A stretch of DNA of 64,000 nucleotides from Dehalococcoidia bacterium (GTDB taxonomy: Bacteria; Chloroflexota; Dehalococcoidia; UBA2979): the NCBI GenBank assembly GCA_965262725.1, contig OZ253555.1, forward strand, positions 640,001-704,000, in the 5' to 3' direction. The notes beneath the pieces are model-generated. The model searched no databases, had not been told where the DNA came from, and saw nothing but the letters and a program-made list of their open reading frames with translations. A program made the translations under genes and the position numbers. Each line of letters begins with the position of its first letter. Position 1 is the stretch's first letter. This document shows, piece after piece, positions 15,420 to 39,874 of the stretch.

Positions 15420-15503
15420 GTGCACCCTGTGCACCCATGCACTAGGGAATACAGGATGTGTACACCACACGTACTCCTAGGGAGCAGGATGCACAGGGTG
15501 CAC
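15420..15503. repeat. TGCAC iteron-like repeats (8-9 bp period) forming a 16-bp inverted repeat
   Basis: GTGCACCCTGTGCACC (15420-15435) versus GATGCACAGGGTGCAC (15488-15503). Confidence 0.7.
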
Positions 15504-15543
15504 GAGGGAGACGGGCGGGACGCGAGGAGGAGGGACGGCGAGC

Positions 15544-15810
15544 ATGGAGACAGAGGCCGCGGGACTGGTCACGTTTTCGCTGATGAGCAGGCAGGGCGGC
15601 GATCGGTGGCATTTGATCTGCGCCCGTTGCGGCCGCGGTCGGGTGCGCTCGGCCGTCGAGGTGTCGTGGCGTCGCGTGCGGCTGCTGCCAGCGCTCGGGG
15701 AGGTCTGGCAGGTGGACGGGAGTGATGCCGCGCTAGCGGCCGCCGTCGAGCACGAGCGGGAGCACGCCGCGGAAGGGGGCGCGCCTGATGGAGAAGGAAC
15801 ACGGCCATGA
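15544..15810 (+). CDS. Hypothetical phage/satellite protein (CxxC)
   Basis: ATG after a purine-rich tract; ATGA overlap with the next ORF. Confidence 0.5.
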   Translation: METEAAGLVTFSLMSRQGGDRWHLICARCGRGRVRSAVEVSWRRVRLLPALGEVWQVDGSDAALAAAVEHEREHAAEGGAPDGEGTRP

Positions 15811-16223
15811 CCAAGGCGGGGCCGATCGTGGTTCTCAAGGTCGAGATCCACGACTCGACGGGGCGCGAGGCATCGAGGCCGGGCGCGTTCATGGTGCGGC
15901 CTGACGAGGCCGAGAGAGCCGGGCTGGTGGTCGGCGTGACGCCGCATATGCACTTGGTCTTGCGTGGCCGGTCGCCGCTGGCGGTCGCCGTGTTCGAGCC
16001 CGACGCCGCGGAGCGGGCCGCCGCCCTGTCCATCGCCGCCATCCCGGGCGTGTTCGCAGACGGGAGGGTGACATCCGGCGGCCTCCCGCTGGTCGAGGTG
16101 GATGGCACGCGCTGGCACTGTGCCTCGGCTGAGGCGGACGCGGCGCGCGTCGTGCTGAGGCGTGAGCTTGGCCCTCGGTGGCGCTGGCCGTGTGAGATCG
16201 TGAAGGGGCTCGCCGCCGACTGA
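15807..16223 (+). CDS. Hypothetical phage/satellite protein
   Basis: 138-aa ORF coupled to the upstream ORF; GAAGGA RBS. Confidence 0.55.
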   Translation: MTKAGPIVVLKVEIHDSTGREASRPGAFMVRPDEAERAGLVVGVTPHMHLVLRGRSPLAVAVFEPDAAERAAALSIAAIPGVFADGRVTSGGLPLVEVDGTRWHCASAEADAARVVLRRELGPRWRWPCEIVKGLAAD

Positions 16224-16334
16224 TAGCGGAGGCGCTCGCGGGGGCGTAAGCCCTATCCCGCGCCTGATGGCACCGCCGGGCGCGCTTGGGGTGCCTAGGG
16301 GCGAAGCGGGGGTCTTCCTGCCACACACAGGACC

Positions 16335-16443
16335 GATCGCGGCCGAGGTGGCTACCTACCTCGAGGGGCTCACCATCCGGGGCGGCGACCTCGACGGCGA
16401 GCCGTTCCGGGTGCTCCCGTGGGAGCGCCGATTCCTGCGGGAG
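16335..16443 (+). pseudogene. N-terminal fragment of a phage terminase large subunit
   Basis: YLEGLTIRGGDLDGEPFRVLPWERRFLR resembles terminase N-termini; cut off by the convergent gene. Confidence 0.55.
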
Positions 16444-18026
16444 GACTCCCGAGCCTCGAACCAGACGAGCACCACGGCGCGAGCACAGGCATCGCCAAGG
16501 CGCTCTGCCTCTCGCGTCGGAAGGAACCTCGACCTGTGGCTGACGAGATTGCGAGTGCCGACGGCTGCCGCCAGCGTATTCGCGACCATTTGGTCGCGGT
16601 CGATGCCGGGTGTAGCGGCATGGACCGCCCTCTCAACGCTTCGCTCGGCTAGGTCTCCGGCCCCATCCCCCGTCTTCAGCGGTTTGAAGTGGGGAAGCCA
16701 CGCAGAGTCTCTCCCCAGGATCTGCACCATCGGCCGCAGCGTCTTGTTGTGAGGGCAATCGTCCTGGTGAGGCGTGTGACTGCACGGCGACTCGACTTCA
16801 AGGAGGGCGCGGAGGAGTTGCTCGACTGCTAGTGCTAGCGGCCTGAGCCTCCGATTGAGGAAGCCGGGGAAGCGGTCACGGCGCTGATCATCGTCGGTGA
16901 ACGACTCGTGCTGGAGGCTGCGCAGGACCTCGAAGAGGTCGTTCTCTTGGCAGAACGCCACGATCTCATCGGGCACGCTGTTGAGAGTGCCCCGACCGGC
17001 GATGCTCGCGAGAGGCTCTGCACCAACCATGAACCTCAGGTTCTCCCGTGCGTCGTCAGCAGCCGCGTCGACCGGATCGAGACGGCGCAAACCCGCGACC
17101 AGCGCCGGTCCGCGATGCCTCTCGGCGGAAGCGAGGAAGCTATCCCAGTCGTGTCCGAACGCATATCCGGCGAGTGCTTGGGCGTCGAGCAGGTATTGCT
17201 CCGCGTCCTCGGCCAGAGCGATGCGCTCGTCGGCACGGTACTCATTGATCAATCCGACAAGTCTTCCGAGGAACTCGAAGAAGGCCGGCTCGGCTACGCC
17301 TGACATCTCGAGGGCCCGCTGCGCCCAATCGGTCAGGACCGTCCGGAGTTGGTCGCGCGCCGGCTTCGAAAGCGATTCTCCTGAGAGCATGCCGTCGAAC
17401 GCTTCGTTAAGAGCAGCTTGGTCCGCGTAGAGAAACCTCTCCAACGCGTCGAAGCCAGCGGCCATCCCTCGGAGTGAACGGATCTCCTCGGTGTTATCGG
17501 GGAGGCGGTACCGACTCTGGAGTTCATGTGCCGGGTCTAGGTGTCGCAAGAATCGTGAGTGGACGTAGTAGTACTTCTGGCGGAGCAGTAGTTCGAGGAC
17601 ATGGACCTGCCAGGGGTGGTAGTACCGCTCGACAGCCGGGTGCCTTCTTACTTTTCGATCCGGCCCGGTGACGGCAACCTTGCCGGCGTCCCACGGCTCG
17701 AAGGTCGCGCAGTCGGGTGTGACGAGGAACGGATTGCGGCCACGCTCAGCGTCGAAGGAGTGGAGGCCGTCCGCATGGCGTAGCTGCAGCCTCCGCAATG
17801 CCTCGGGAGATGTCAGGTCTTCCGGGTTCGTGATGGGCACCCCGGAACCCATCTCGGCCGCCGCGATGACGTAGGCGGTTGGTCGGTGGACCCGGGCAGC
17901 GGGCAAGAGCAGGCAGTGTTGCTCATAGAACTCCAACTCCGAATCACTCGGCCAGCCCACGTTGAGCGAATTGGCATAGGACCTGAAGTTGCGGGCCGTG
18001 ATGAAGCGTTCGCCGTGCCGATTCAT
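16356..18026 (-). CDS. Large hypothetical protein with C-terminal RxxxxH (HEPN-like) motif
   Basis: Long ORF from ATG 18026; RNLVSH near the C-terminus; the extreme 3' end runs into the terminase fragment. Confidence 0.65.
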   Translation of the reverse strand: MNRHGERFITARNFRSYANSLNVGWPSDSELEFYEQHCLLLPAARVHRPTAYVIAAAEMGSGVPITNPEDLTSPEALRRLQLRHADGLHSFDAERGRNPFLVTPDCATFEPWDAGKVAVTGPDRKVRRHPAVERYYHPWQVHVLELLLRQKYYYVHSRFLRHLDPAHELQSRYRLPDNTEEIRSLRGMAAGFDALERFLYADQAALNEAFDGMLSGESLSKPARDQLRTVLTDWAQRALEMSGVAEPAFFEFLGRLVGLINEYRADERIALAEDAEQYLLDAQALAGYAFGHDWDSFLASAERHRGPALVAGLRRLDPVDAAADDARENLRFMVGAEPLASIAGRGTLNSVPDEIVAFCQENDLFEVLRSLQHESFTDDDQRRDRFPGFLNRRLRPLALAVEQLLRALLEVESPCSHTPHQDDCPHNKTLRPMVQILGRDSAWLPHFKPLKTGDGAGDLAERSVERAVHAATPGIDRDQMVANTLAAAVGTRNLVSHRSRFLPTREAERLGDACARAVVLVWFEARESSRRNRRSHGSTRNGSPSRSPPRMVSPSR

Positions 18027-18553
18027 GGGTCTCCTGCAGCAGGATGCTGCTTGCGCGCTCGAGGGTAGCAGCGATTGCAGAACGGTCACGTGGAGACCGG
18101 AGTTGTTGCTCGTCGTCGGCTCGGCCGCTGAGTGGCTGTGTGGCTCCACTGTGCCTGAATCGGTCGGCCTAGGCCTCCGTCTAGCCAAACAGCACCGCGG
18201 CGACCTTCTGCCACGGGCCGCGGAGGCTGGACGTTGACTCGTCTTCGACGAGGCCGTCCTCCCCGGCTAGTGTCCTCGATCCCTGAGATTTACGGGGAAG
18301 TTCGCTCCCGAGAGCCCCACCTCACACGGTTCCGCGCGGGCTGCGCAGCAACTGCCCACCACTGGGATATCCCCCGGGCGGCTAGGGCCGACGGCCTTGG
18401 CCGGAGGGCAGCCTCGACCGGAGCATGCGTCGCACCTCCGTGGTGGCTTAGCGCGGTTCGGGATGGGAGACTCACTCCGAAGAGTAGGCTGCCATCACCT
18501 AGATCCGGTGGCAGCGCGGCGTCTCGGGAGACAGGGCGGACCGGTAGCCGTGG

Positions 18554-19102
18554 ATGACTACGGAAGGCATCACGACTTGGGAGAACGCCCGCCGGCGAAG
18601 GTTGCTGAGCGACTTCCGGGACAATGTTGAACGGTACTTCGGTGCAGCCACTGACGAGGACGACGGCGCCGTTCGTCGTGAGCTTAATCGAGCCTTACCC
18701 GAAGTCCGGAGCGTCGTTGCTACCGCGGGGATAGTACCAATGCTCCGCTGGAATCCTCCGAGACTGATGGGCGGTCCCGCGATGGATGTCCACCTCCTCC
18801 GCGATCTGTTCCATCTCAAGCAGTTGTGGATCAGTCACACTCTTGTGTTGGACGAGCTAGACCGCTCTCTGGGCGTCTACGAAGCCGATAGACGTGGAGC
18901 ACTCGCACGGACCTGGAACCCCTTTTGGTGGCTCCAGCGAGGGCTGAGTTGGCTTGGTCGGATTCCCTTCCGCGTACTGCGTGCCGTTGGCATCAACACC
19001 ACTCGCCTTGAAGGCACCGGGGTTGGGTCGGTCATTGGACTCGTCACCGCTTTGGCCGCTCTGGCGGCGGCCCTTCTCACTATCGGTAATGAGATCCGTT
19101 GA
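18554..19102 (+). CDS. Hypothetical membrane protein
   Basis: 182 aa with a C-terminal hydrophobic helix (VIGLVTALAALAAALLTI). Confidence 0.7.
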   Translation: MTTEGITTWENARRRRLLSDFRDNVERYFGAATDEDDGAVRRELNRALPEVRSVVATAGIVPMLRWNPPRLMGGPAMDVHLLRDLFHLKQLWISHTLVLDELDRSLGVYEADRRGALARTWNPFWWLQRGLSWLGRIPFRVLRAVGINTTRLEGTGVGSVIGLVTALAALAAALLTIGNEIR

Positions 19103-19190: not shown

Positions 19191-19408
19191 GCTTGTTGTG
19201 CTCATCTGCGTGTGGGGCTCGGGCTACGCGCCACCACCTACGGTTCGGACCGCGCCAGCCCCTTACCCAACCCACCCTCGACAACTCCTTTCCCTCCGCT
19301 GCGGGGAAGTCAGACTCCACCGAGCGTAGGCACTGGGCGGTCGGGGGTGGTGTCCCCATGTTCTTTGTCAAGGGCCAGCGCCACTGATCCGGGATGGCCG
19401 GCGCAGCG

Positions 19409-20626
19409 TCAGGTAGCCACCGACCCGTGACGAGGAGCCTCCTCGGCGCGGTACGGTTCGCGCGAGCGCAGCATGGCCAGGATGACGTCGCAGCGACGAC
19501 GCGCGAGGCAGATGACGGCTGCGGTGTGTTTCTTCCCCTCGGCCCGCTTGCGGTCGTAGAACGCCCGCGAGACGGGGTCGCGCAGCGAGGCGAAGGCGGA
19601 GAGGTACATCGCGTTCTTGAGCCGGTGATTCCCGCGGCGGCTCCGCGTCTGGCCCCGGATGCTGCTGCCGGATTGGCGGGTGACCGGGGCAGGGCCGGCG
19701 TAGCTGGCCAGCCTCGATCCGTTCGCGAAGCGAGAGATGTCACCGATCTCGGCGAGCATCCGCGCCCCCGTCGTCGGCCCGACCCCCGGCAGGGAGCCGA
19801 GGATGAGGCCGAAAGGGTGGGCCTCGAAGAGCTCCCCGATCTCCGCGCCGAGCCGCTCCCGCCGCTGCTGCGTGCGATCCAGCTCGGTCGCGACCTCGGC
19901 GATCACCCGACCCATCGCGACCGAGCCGGGTACGACCACGGTCTGGGCGCCGAGGGCCCCGGTGACGGCCTCGGTGAGCGCCTTCGCGAGGCGCGGCGAG
20001 CGCTTCCGGAGCGTCCGCGCGATGCGGCCGCGACCCGCCGTGGCCAGCGCCTGCGGTGTCGGGTAGCGGGCGAGCAGGTCCCGTGCCCCCGCATTGTGGA
20101 GCCTGGGGCCCAGTACGCGCTCCAGGGCCGGGGAGAGACCGGTGAGGGCGTCGCGGAGCCGGTTCGTGAGCCGCGTGGCATCGGCGGCGAGGTCGATGTC
20201 GTAGCCGTCGAGAACGCGCAGCTGCTCCAGGAGTTCGTCGTTGCCGGCGTCGAGCCAGTGCACCTGGTGGCGCCGGGTGCGGCCGGTGTCGGCCAGCACG
20301 AACGCGTCGCGACGGTCGGTCTTGGACTCACCCGGGTAGAGGTCGGCGGCACGGCGCATGACCAGCCCCGGCACGTACGCCACCGGCACGCCGCGGCGGG
20401 CGGCGACGGCGAGCACGAGCCGGGCCAGCGAGCCGGGCTGGTCGACGACCAGTGCCGCGGAGCCGAAGGACTCCGCGCGAGCGAGGAGCGCCTCGATGTC
20501 GGCCTCGTCGTTCGCGACGGCGACGGCGAACAGCGGCGAGCCTGCCGCGTCCAGCACATCGGCGAAGTGCTCGGTCTTGCCGATGTCGAGGCCGATCCAC
20601 ACGGTGGTTTCGTCGGGCGTACCCAC
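19409..20626 (-). CDS. IS110 family transposase/recombinase
   Basis: IGLDIGK, KTDRRDA, SLPGVG, LASYAG.APVTRQSG and GNHRLK motifs. Confidence 0.95.
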   Translation of the reverse strand: MGTPDETTVWIGLDIGKTEHFADVLDAAGSPLFAVAVANDEADIEALLARAESFGSAALVVDQPGSLARLVLAVAARRGVPVAYVPGLVMRRAADLYPGESKTDRRDAFVLADTGRTRRHQVHWLDAGNDELLEQLRVLDGYDIDLAADATRLTNRLRDALTGLSPALERVLGPRLHNAGARDLLARYPTPQALATAGRGRIARTLRKRSPRLAKALTEAVTGALGAQTVVVPGSVAMGRVIAEVATELDRTQQRRERLGAEIGELFEAHPFGLILGSLPGVGPTTGARMLAEIGDISRFANGSRLASYAGPAPVTRQSGSSIRGQTRSRRGNHRLKNAMYLSAFASLRDPVSRAFYDRKRAEGKKHTAAVICLARRRCDVILAMLRSREPYRAEEAPRHGSVAT

Positions 20627-20639
20627 TGCAACTCCTTCC

Positions 20640-20850
20640 GGGGTTTCTCCCTCATTCCAGCAGGAAGGCCGCAGGCGCGCTCGCCGTCATCCACCTTACA
20701 AATCAGCGATTGGCTCGCATGTCCCCATCAGAGGTTCATGCGCCGAACAGTGCCGGTGGCAACACCACCTGGGCCGTCCGTTGCGGCAGGGCCACTTGAG
20801 CCATGCCGGCACTGCTGGGCTTCCCGGGCTCAGAGGTTACTGAGCTCGTT
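20640..20850 (-). ncRNA. Bridge RNA of IS110 element 1
   Basis: Stem CAGUGCCGG/CCGGCACUG encloses target guides; a second loop holds donor guides matching the IS ends. Confidence 0.75.
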
Positions 20851-21595
20851 TGAAGAAGGTAAGGGGCCACTTCAGAGCATCACTCCCAACCCCATGTCCA
20901 TACAGTGCGAGTGGCCGACCTCGGTGGCCGTGGGGTTCTCGTCGCGGGGGCGGGCGGGTATGCCGACGATCGGCCGACGCGCGAGTACATCCGCGAGTCG
21001 CGGGTGCGCCATCACGCCTCGATGCCCCGGACGTGGCAATCGACCCCAGAGATACGATGCCTGTCCCGGAGCAGGAGATGAATCGGGCCTCGGCTTGAGT
21101 CGGCGAGCAGATAGCGGCGTCCGAGTAGACACGGCATCGCGATGTGCCGAGCAAGACAATCGCATGGCGCGAGTGGCCGAGCGCGAGGTTCGACCCGTGC
21201 ATGAAGAAAAAGATCATATGATCCGCTATCAATTCCCGCTCACGATCCGCTCGATCGTTCCCACGGCGCATCTGTGGAGCGCCGTCGGGTACCTACTCAA
21301 GCGGCGTCGGCGCTCGCGGGCACTCGCGACTCGGGAGCTTGAGCGAGGAATGGGACGCGCCGTCAGGCTGCCCTCCAGTGTCGACGTGGATCTCGTAGGG
21401 GCGAAGGAAGGCGCGCTTCACGAACGTGAGGTGGCGCTCGCTGCTGCCGGCCAGGTGAGAGCCCGGCGTCGCCGTCGCGCCACGCAGGCGCGCGGGGCCG
21501 CGGTCCCGGGAAGCACGCGGGCGCCAACGGCAGCCGCCCGAGCAACCGCGGCCGGCGCGGGCAGAGGCACCGCGAGGGGATGCTGCCCGAGTTCG

Positions 21596-38647: not shown

Positions 38648-39874
38648 TCAGGCGGCGAGCTCAGCGTCCTCGGTGCCCAGGCCGCCCCAGGCAGTCTCCT
38701 CGTCGTAGAGCCGGCGCTTGTGCAGGCAGCCGTGCAGGAACGCGACCAGGCGGTTGGCGAGGGCGCGCAGCGCCTGGTTGTGCCCGTCGCCGAGCGCCCG
38801 CCGCTGCTGGTAGTACGCCCGGCACCCGGGACTCGCCTGGAGCGAGCAGAACGCCCACATGTGTATCGCGTCGTAGAGGCGCCGGTTCCGCACGTGGCGC
38901 GCGGTGACCGCCCGCTTCCGCCCCGATGATATGGTGAGCGGCGACGTGCCCGCGTAGTTCCTGCGGGACTTCGCGGACACGAAGCGTTCGGGGTCATCCC
39001 CGAACTCGCCCAGCACCCGGGCGCCGAGCACGGGCCCCAGGCCCGGCATCGACAGGTAAATCGCGGCGTCCGGGTGCTCCTCAAGAGACGCGGCCAGCTT
39101 CGACTCCAGTACCTCGAGTTGCCGGTTGATCTCCTGGAGCTGGGCAACCTGGGCGAGCACGCTGTCGGCGAACGCCTCGCTGAGCGCGGGCGCGACCGGG
39201 AGCGTGCGGAGCCGGAGTACCTCGCGTATCTCTTCCGCCCGCGTGTCCAGGTTGCGCTTGCGGCCTCCGCGCCTGAGCGCCGCGCGGAGCTGCGTCCGCG
39301 TCAGCTTCGCCGCCGCGAGCGGCTCCGGGGCGACGGCCAGCACCGAGAGCGCATCGGGATGCGTGAGGTCGGGGAAGGCCTGGAGTGCGGCCGGGAAGTA
39401 CTGCAGCAGCGCGCTGCGCAGCCGGTTGCTCTCGCGGGTGCGATTCCAGACCAGCTGCTGCTGGGCGCGGGCGCGCACCTGCACGGCGGAGGCGAGGGCG
39501 CTGTCGCCCGCGACCGGCCGGTGGTTGTGGCTGTCGGTGCGAACGAGGTTCGCGAGCATGCGCGCATCGCCCCGGTCCGACTTCCCGCCGCCGACCTGGT
39601 GTCGCTCGCGGTAGAGGGCCGCCACCCGCGGATTGATGGCGTAGACCCGGTAGCCCGCGCCGATGAGCGCTGCGACCCACGGGCCGCGGTCGGTCTCGAT
39701 GCCGACCACGACCTGGCCGGCCTCCTGTGCATGCTCGGCGAGCAGCGCATGGAGCGCGGTCATGCCCTCCGCTCCCTCGGGGAGTCGCTTCGCCGCGAGG
39801 CTCTCGCCCTCCTCGTTCATGACATGGACATCGTGATGGTCCTCGGCCCAGTCGTCGCCCACGTACACCGTCAA
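38648..39874 (-). CDS. IS110 family transposase/recombinase (element 2)
   Basis: VGDDWAEDHHD, GIET, KSDRGDA, SMPGLG and YAGTSP.T.SSG motifs. Confidence 0.95.
   Translation of the reverse strand: MTVYVGDDWAEDHHDVHVMNEEGESLAAKRLPEGAEGMTALHALLAEHAQEAGQVVVGIETDRGPWVAALIGAGYRVYAINPRVAALYRERHQVGGGKSDRGDARMLANLVRTDSHNHRPVAGDSALASAVQVRARAQQQLVWNRTRESNRLRSALLQYFPAALQAFPDLTHPDALSVLAVAPEPLAAAKLTRTQLRAALRRGGRKRNLDTRAEEIREVLRLRTLPVAPALSEAFADSVLAQVAQLQEINRQLEVLESKLAASLEEHPDAAIYLSMPGLGPVLGARVLGEFGDDPERFVSAKSRRNYAGTSPLTISSGRKRAVTARHVRNRRLYDAIHMWAFCSLQASPGCRAYYQQRRALGDGHNQALRALANRLVAFLHGCLHKRRLYDEETAWGGLGTEDAELAA

Follow-up and report, generated by a model that had tools for sequence, protein, structure and literature searches.

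An IS110-group insertion sequence in a Dehalococcoidia genome: putative bridge-RNA guides that follow its junctions and insertion sites, and an apparent CC core

A 64,000-nucleotide window of a Dehalococcoidia bacterium genome (contig OZ253555.1, positions 640,001 to 704,000) was analysed, and positions in the window are counted from its first letter. On its minus strand, at 19351..20862, lies an insertion sequence of the IS110 group. Judged from its sequence, this element very probably moves by recombination guided by a bridge RNA. The evidence consists of the covariation of the guides with flanks and element ends, the covarying helices of the non-coding arm and the unoccupied paralogous sites found for the element. 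A first-pass annotation of the window had proposed the bridge-RNA reading, and the present analysis supports it.

The element proper is 1512 bp long and has no terminal inverted repeats. Its boundaries were obtained from the alignment of six genome copies and relatives, among which similarity ends at TTACC... on the left and at ...GGGACA on the right. It is flanked by CC at both ends (20864-20863 and 19350-19349). Read on the minus strand, the left junction is GAAGTGGCC-CC-TTAC (20873-20859) and the right junction is ATGGGGACA-CC-ACC (19359-19346). When window 19200-21000 was re-read, every string quoted in the first-pass annotation was found on the minus strand where it had been placed. The span of 19341-20872 given there is loose, as it takes in about 10 nt of flank at either end; 19351-20862 is the element itself, to which one CC is added. 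The recombinase gene is preceded by a non-coding left end of 236 nt (20862-20627) and followed by a right end of 58 nt (19408-19351). The genome is a single contig of 3.67 Mb (G000 in the coordinates below). It carries three full-length copies at 98-100% identity, which are c1 (the window copy), c2 (G000 1516332-1517862) and c3 (G000 1438894-1440417, outside the window). Three more copies, c4, c5 and c6 (G000 1722019-1723535, 3063051-3064563 and 3314219-3315735), are about 80% identical and have guides of the poly-C-targeting type. Ten partial matches were also found in the same genome. A scan of species-representative genomes gave 79 loci.

Four guide segments were assigned in the left end, and they sit on the 5' and 3' sides of two internal loops. 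The left target guide, AAGUGGCCCU (20788..20797, minus strand), reads in the sense of the left flank AAGTGGCC-CC, and its last U is opposite a bottom-strand G; AAGTGGCCC is located at 20797-20789. The right target guide, CCAGGUGG (20765..20772, minus strand), contains GGUGG (GGTGG at 20769-20765), which is complementary to CC-ACC, and the full 8-mer is complementary to CCACCTGG. Single guide bases distinguish copies that share 94-98% identity, and every such copy is inserted in a site with the base of its guide. Position 3 of the left guide is G in c1, the flank of which is GAAGTGG, and A in c2 and c3, the flanks of which are GAAATGG. The same position is C in five insertions of one metagenome-assembled genome (MAG; L013, L014, L015, L033 and L102) and T in the five insertions of G103, and the flank has the matching C or T in all of them. 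A second guide change, GUAGCC in L106, is mirrored by the flank CAGCC.

The nine positions of the left guide were compared over 17 distinct insertion events, a set in which the filter also took in two poly-C-type elements (L026 and L027). The guide matched the flank at 9/9 positions in seven events, 8/9 in one, 7/9 in six, 5/9 in one and 4/9 in two. At the five distal positions, 61 of 85 comparisons matched against a permuted mean of 45.2, and 0/20000 permutations reached 61; the kin in this test are non-independent, so the significance is somewhat overstated. Copies at sites unrelated to their guides had been named in the first-pass annotation as the observation that would speak against it. 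The comparison mostly gave no such refutation, since 14 of the 17 events match at 7/9 positions or more, and the exceptions are the truncated L008 and the two poly-C-type elements caught by the filter. In the window genome, 37 GAANTGGCCCC sites are present, composed of 28 T, 5 G and 4 A sites. The G-guide copy is in a G site, both A-guide copies are in A sites, and none of the T sites is occupied. The chance of this G/A occupancy is (5/37)(4/37)^2, or about 0.002.

The right target guide behaves in a similar manner. It is CCAGGUGG in c1, with the flank CCACC..., and UCGGGUGG in c2, c3 and the C-guide copies, with flanks CCACCC.... It is UCAAGUGG in G103, and the L120 flank CCACTTG matches over 7 nt. 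The 80% copies and most relatives carry CUGGGGGG, and their flanks are runs of C. In L035 the guide is UGAAAGGG and the flank CCCTTTCA matches over 8 nt. A contiguous match of at least 5 nt from the core was present in 10 of the 14 events with a known right flank.

The donor guides correspond to the ends of the element itself. The left donor guide, AUGGGGACA (20720..20728, minus strand), repeats the final 9 nt of the right end exactly, and ATGGGGACA is present at 20728-20720. The right donor guide, GUAAGG (20694..20699, minus strand), is complementary to CC-TTAC, that is, to the core and the left end. A right end is available for 56 elements. In 33 of them its last 9 nt are reproduced exactly by the left donor guide, in 22 the guide deviates at one position and in one at two. 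The first three bases of the left donor guide, which occur in four haplotypes (ATG, ATA, ACG and ACA), agree with the right end in 49/56, and six of the seven disagreements are a G facing a bottom-strand T. In 67/68 tabulated elements, core and left end are matched by the right donor guide, the classes of which are GUAAGG/CCTTAC, GUAACG/CGTTAC, GUAAAG/CTTTAC and AUAACG/CGTTAT. The fifth base of the right donor guide covaries with the base before TTAC, which is C in CC/TTAC, G in CC/GTTAC and T in CC/TTTAC (slashes separate core or flank from the element). Among actinobacterial relatives, only a single core base thus seems to be covered by this guide. Taken with the covarying helices around both loops, the covariation with flanks and ends supports all four guide assignments of the first-pass annotation.

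The fold of the arm was derived from 46 distinct arms, which were aligned by MAFFT without structure fitting and folded by RNAalifold. In the consensus, the first internal loop is bounded by a long closing helix and a small inner hairpin, and the second by two closing helices. The target-binding loop extends over 20746..20816 (minus strand), with the closing helix 20816-20800 / 20760-20746 and the inner hairpin 20787-20773 (15+4 pairs, 10 compensatory). The donor-binding loop extends over 20674..20744 (minus strand), with closing helices 20744-20731 / 20688-20674 (10 pairs, 6 compensatory). The 9-bp stem CAGTGCCGG / CCGGCACTG noticed earlier is present, and the alignment extends this helix to 11+4 pairs. 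On the 46 sequences, 29 pairs were tested and 97.4% of 1329 cells were standard-paired. Changes on both sides occurred in 16/29 pairs, and 0/500 shuffles attained the observed value in any of five measures. When the 3' partners were shifted by 1-3 columns, pairing was only 23-54%. The inner stem of the second loop, GCGA/UCGC, was recognised by eye only. Four RNAalifold pairs joining CCCC of the left target guide with GGGG of the right target guide were dropped from the tested structure because both guides read one C-rich site and are complementary by construction. The single-sequence fold (z = -1.22) was uninformative, and the alignment-based test was used instead.

The sites into which the sublineage of c1 inserts belong to another mobile element. 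A 2.63-kb element with 14 near-identical copies in the genome carries the TGGCCCCACC motif twice in its left end. Its second open reading frame (ORF) matches IstB_IS21 (1e-60) and its first matches Mu-transpos_C_2. Therefore, this element belongs to the IS21 family. On sequence grounds, the repeated TGGCCCCACC motif of IS21-family left ends is the predicted natural target of the c1 sublineage, and runs of C are the predicted target of the sister lineages with C-rich guides. The left flank of c1 (20865..20888, minus strand; GGGAGTGATGCTCTGAAGTGG...) is the diverged outer tip of an IS21-family left end, 26 nt of which are 92% identical to the IS21-family copy L092. The ORFs of the window beside the element (16356-18188, 15477-16328 and 18554-19102) matched no Pfam family. 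Therefore, no IS21 genes are left beside c1, which is located in a diverged, gene-less remnant of an IS21-family end. The right guide of c1 would fit the outer IS21 site (CCACCTGG) perfectly, and that of c2 and c3 fits the inner site (CCACCC). The predicted cognate target for the c3 protein is GAAATGGCC-CC-ACCC. In four sequencing runs, loose contig ends gave further insertions of the types CCATTTGGCCCC/TTAC... and ...ACA/CCACC-TTGATCC, and an unoccupied AAAGTGGCCCCACC site was present in one of the four.

A core of CC, as suggested in the first-pass annotation, is supported by three paralogous unoccupied sites, each of which explains exactly two duplicated C. Each site has two fewer C than both junctions together, and the two core copies are at 20863..20864 (left) and 19349..19350 (right), minus strand. 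The unoccupied sites in IS21 ends, TGG-CCCC-ACC, have 4 C, compared with 4+2 at the junctions (TGG-CCCC/TTAC and ACA/CC-ACC). An uninterrupted 800-bp paralog at G000 1512822-1513620, which joins the c2 left flank (329 bp, 96.7%) to the c3 right flank (470 bp, 98.9%), has 5 C, compared with 4+3. The repeat neighbouring L035 likewise has 5 C compared with 4+3. A true empty allele of the c1 locus was found neither in 40 other genomes, in which the left flank has no orthologue, nor in the contigs of the four runs. The target (GGCC-CC-ACC) and the donor (GACA-CC-TTAC) of this lineage have exactly CC in common. Both core positions are C in all 68 tabulated elements, all of which fit the CC-core pattern.

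The recombinase is encoded at 19409..20626 on the minus strand as an ORF of 405 aa with a GTG start. The DEDD_Tnp_IS110 domain (PF01548) was detected over its full profile at residues 11-166 (2.9e-38) and Transposase_20 (PF02371) at residues 275-357 (1.2e-22). The NCBIfam equivalog NF033542, 'IS110 family RNA-guided transposase', gave 209.6 bits against a cut-off of 140. The C-terminal Tnp domain aligned by phmmer to the IS621 transposase structure 8wt6_A (E 3.4e-17) and also to ISCro4; for the N-terminal domain, phmmer gave no alignment to IS621. S319 of RQSGSS is aligned with the first S of ESGSS in the IS621 chain 8wt6_A, and D14, D62, D104 and D107 are placed in conserved motifs by the alignment of relatives. 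All 13 aligned proteins have D as the second acidic residue of the motif (VVDQPGS), where the name DEDD has E.

The two ends also contain the halves of a putative promoter. TTGACA (19366..19371, minus strand) would be a -35 half completed only in the circle, and TACCTT (20856..20861, minus strand) a -10-like half of the form TANNNT. The spacer computed across the joined ends is 18 nt, as the first-pass annotation had stated. TTGAC is present in 49/49 distinct right ends, which were located without TTGAC as an anchor, and the hexamer ends 14 or 15 nt before the last base. In the left end, T-A-N-N-T-T (T4, A5, T8 and T9) is invariant in 46 arms. A promoter scan found no sigma-70-like site in the integrated state. 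From what is described for the family in the available portions of PMC11208160, PMC11208158 and PMC11187229, we infer a promoter function for TTGACA/TACCTT. The 24 listed sequencing runs are assembled contigs, none of them recorded as RNA, and four runs were examined for junctions. Contigs of run X15 span both junctions of the c1 insertion. This run may be the source sample and is therefore not an independent support. The single listed joint, 20412 to 21166 (side 21), looks unrelated to the element.

The mechanism proposed for the element was drawn from that of the family. A circle would be excised when the two CC cores recombine. Joining of the right end to the left end would place TTGACA 18 nt from TACCTT, so that the left arm and the recombinase gene would be transcribed, and the arm RNA would adopt its fold with two internal loops. 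The first would read the target, with AAGUGGCC(C) in the sense of the left flank and GGUGG antisense to CC-ACC. The second would read the joined ends, with AUGGGGACA in the sense of the right end and GUAAGG antisense to CC-TTAC. Strands would then be exchanged at CC by the DEDD/serine recombinase.

Several observations weigh against this interpretation. The truncated fragment L008 matches its flank at only 4/9 positions, and L018 carries a T guide at a C site, with two mismatches, one of them at the variable position. Only CC was matched in 4 of the 14 right flanks, and one of the four, that of c3, is accounted for by the flank swap described below. RNAalifold places a 4-bp pairing between the C-rich left and the G-rich right target guides, and the first loop may be partly closed by it. 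No Rfam 15 family matched the arm, and only three sub-threshold chance matches (GRIK4 3' UTR, snoZ178 and HOXB13-AS1) appeared. TACCTT has only 3/6 bases of TATAAT and is below the threshold of the scan itself. Neither the circle joint nor a contig joining across the element was seen in the assembled contigs of the four runs. In addition, the left guides are not Watson-Crick paired with the second core base: the left target guide has CU and the left donor guide UG where the core is CC. In one rival reading, the guide matches are a chance or repeat by-product and the arm is only a structured 5' untranslated region. In its favour, the sequence is GC-rich, no Rfam family matched, and the 5-mer and 6-mer matches are individually weak and gain weight only through position and covariation. 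However, when the 236-nt arm was imitated 20000 times by a first-order Markov process, matches of at least 9 nt to the left flank and core (14 nt) occurred in 254 imitations and to the right end in 136, and both occurred together in just 3. With several guide positions covarying with flanks and ends across genomes, a chance origin is very hard to believe. A core other than CC is also improbable, though less extremely so. It could be of the CT type as in IS621, or the exchange could span 1 or 3 nt within the C run. Such a core would be consistent with the left target guide terminating in CU in at least 44 of the 46 aligned sequences (CA is read in some relatives), with the junctions made ambiguous by C runs in the poly-C-targeting relatives, and with the covariation of the fifth right-donor base, which hints at a shifted register in the CC/GTTAC and CC/TTTAC clades. 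On the other hand, exactly two C are duplicated at each of three independent unoccupied sites, exactly CC is shared by target and donor in this lineage, and no T is found at the second position of either junction in the 68 tabulated elements.

The most serious rival concerns the enzyme and not the RNA. In it, the bridge RNA and the element are real, but c1 is non-autonomous, its recombinase being crippled and the copy mobile only with enzyme supplied in trans from c3. This is a substantial possibility, rated at somewhat under an even chance. Two substitutions, which also count against the interpretation given above, are private to c1: R285T (GPRTGA to GPTTGA) and L312P (YAGLAP to YAGPAP). Both positions are invariant in c2 and c3 and in 12 aligned relatives, down to about 48% identity. 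L312 corresponds to the L of AGL in IS621, seven residues ahead of the catalytic serine motif. Decay is frequent among the genome copies. One nucleotide is deleted in the c2 frame, the motif serine of c4 is replaced by P (RQPGSS, not RQSGSS), and c5 has a premature stop and c6 a frameshift; hence all three 80% copies are defective. Of the six copies, only c1 and c3 have open frames, and c3 has the consensus residues. Against a crippled enzyme, the c1 frame is open over 405 aa with D14, D62, D104, D107 and S319 all kept, and the guides and ends of c1 match each other perfectly. The recombinase had been described as intact in the first-pass annotation. The frame is open and the catalytic motifs are present, but in view of the two changes at invariant positions this description goes further than the sequence supports. 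The same applies to its suggestion of a candidate new programmable tool. From these comparisons, the sister copy c3 looks a better candidate for activity than c1. Bridge-RNA-guided movement of the element as a whole is retained as the preferred reading.

The arrangement of c2 and c3 deserves a separate description. These 98% copies lie in inverted orientation about 77 kb apart and their flanks are swapped. The left flank of c3 is the first 58 nt of an IS21-family copy, the remaining 2.57 kb of which abuts the right end of c2, and the c2 left flank and c3 right flank are contiguous in the paralog at 1512822-1513620. The simplest reading of the swapped flanks is an inversion through recombination between c2 and c3. 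The IS21-family tip beside c3 (G000 ~1438893) differs from the other copies at 1 base in 58 (98.3%). Apart from this, identity among the IS21 copies is 99.9-100% over 2.6 kb. The differing base apparently faces left-guide position 3, giving GAAATGG instead of GAATTGG. Either a rare site variant was picked by the guide, or a conversion between element copies extended into the flank.

Other traces of the element and its family were noted. Three loci (G000 1589515, 3127801 and 1188270) carry the first ~15 nt of the left end (CCTTACCTTCTTCAAG) behind identical upstream sequence, and no recombinase match was found near them. They may be left-end remnants within another repeat. In related MAGs, L016, L017, L019, L022 and L024 have lost the first ~30 nt of the left end and have a common replacement upstream sequence, as if they were within a larger repeated unit. 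A terminator-like hairpin, GGGGGTGGTGTCCCC, with a T-rich tail lies across the right junction on the plus strand (window 19343-19357) and is built from the last bases of the element and the flank. The window contains a second, distant IS110-family reading frame at 38690-39592 on the minus strand, with 34% identity over 305 aa to the element protein by tblastn, and a twin of this frame is at G000 1914923-1915825.

Proteins with 94% and 81% identity to the recombinase occur in 'MAG: Dehalococcoidia bacterium' records. The identity is 54-72% in Acidimicrobiia/Microthrixaceae MAGs and about 50% in many Actinomycetota. By DNA search, the arm was present in 10 of 98 other genomes of the family, with 0/4 in the same genus and 8/19 in another genus. 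This patchy distribution fits horizontal spread. Parts of the arm were also seen in contigs of a run labelled sponge metagenome (X2).

Bridge recombinases and their RNAs have been described for IS621 and IS622 (ISCro4) (Durrant et al. 2024, PMC11208160; Hiraizumi et al. 2024, PMC11208158; preprint 10.1101/2025.05.14.653916), and the comparison made here is with the accessible portions of these sources. Like IS621 and IS622, the element has DEDD-type and serine domains, a predicted non-coding RNA upstream of the gene in a long left end, a 2-nt core, and a putative -35 in the right end with a -10-like half in the left end. It also has two loops, of which the 5' side is in the sense of the left half-site (9 nt here) and the 3' side is antisense to the right (5-8 nt here); the corresponding pairings in IS621 are 8-9 nt with the bottom strand for the 5' sides and 4-7 nt with the top strand for the 3' sides (PMC11208160). 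The core of IS621 is CT and takes part in all four pairings (PMC11208160), and its T at position 9 is 'almost invariant' in IS621 and related orthologues and read by a main-chain amide (PMC11208158). In contrast, the core here is CC, without this near-invariant T; CC is paired by the terminal GG of the right guides, and the left guides lack a Watson-Crick pair with the second core base. As in the IS621 text, the 2 nt just 3' of the right target guide (UG, 20763..20764, minus strand) are complementary to donor positions 7 and 6 (A7/C6), the C-A before the core, and not to target C7, and would by the rule of PMC11208158 be the handshake-guide position. Unlike in that text, the UG that follows the right donor guide has its complement in the guide's own donor and not in the target, which counts as a further point against the interpretation: in IS621, a dinucleotide in this place that pairs with its own donor locks the complex and blocks strand exchange (PMC11208158). 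The element also differs from IS621 in its target, which is an IS21-family end and not a REP element, in the restriction of the phmmer alignment to the Tnp domain, and in the D as second acidic residue.

ISEc21 with its seekRNA was reported by Siddiquee et al. (2024, PMC11187229), and the available part of that paper reports natural re-programming among close relatives. As described there, a non-coding region upstream of tnp sets the target and a circle with abutted ends is formed, as proposed here; the host phylum and the target are different, and the comparison is at the level of the description. In the available supplements of Durrant et al., two lineage-specific donor-loop strings gave 0 matches, an absence that means little since the supplement text is incomplete, and two shorter strings matched only synthetic oligos or unrelated rows. 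The literature search found no paper naming a natural CC core, which is weak evidence, as ISfinder and most supplements were not covered. The homing of a guide-directed element into the end of another mobile element has a parallel in IS4321 and IS5075 of the IS1111 group, whose insertion sites are the terminal inverted repeats of Tn21-family transposons. The RNA of the IS1111 group is downstream of the gene. The present element belongs to the IS110 group, and its target is a repeated motif of the IS21-family left end.

It is conceivable, though we hold it only tentatively and consider it rather doubtful, that the element stands for a clade of bridge recombinases that exchange at CC. The clade would comprise Dehalococcoidia and Acidimicrobiia MAGs and many Actinomycetota. 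In it, the second core base would be unpaired or wobbled in the left guides, both post-guide dinucleotides would be complementary to the donor, and core recognition and handshake would differ from those of IS621. If this is true, a C replaces the almost invariant T that IS621-like enzymes read through a main-chain contact, and CC-core sites would be addressable by bridge editing. In that case, nature would have supplied a specificity series ready for use in the near-identical copies, which differ by single guide bases and have matching flanks.

The mechanism is already known, the class having been described in 2024, and the protein is already named by an NCBI model. The element is unusual mainly in its CC rather than CT core and in its homing into the ends of another jumping gene. 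The range of sites open to bridge editors is limited by the core, so a naturally CC-using enzyme would merit a test, with c3 as a better starting point than c1. For the family, the element offers a clean, internally controlled natural case of guide reprogramming. It also presents an RNA-guided element that parasitises IS21-family ends in Dehalococcoidia-type genomes, and documents an apparent CC core for a large branch of the IS110 family, most of it actinobacterial.

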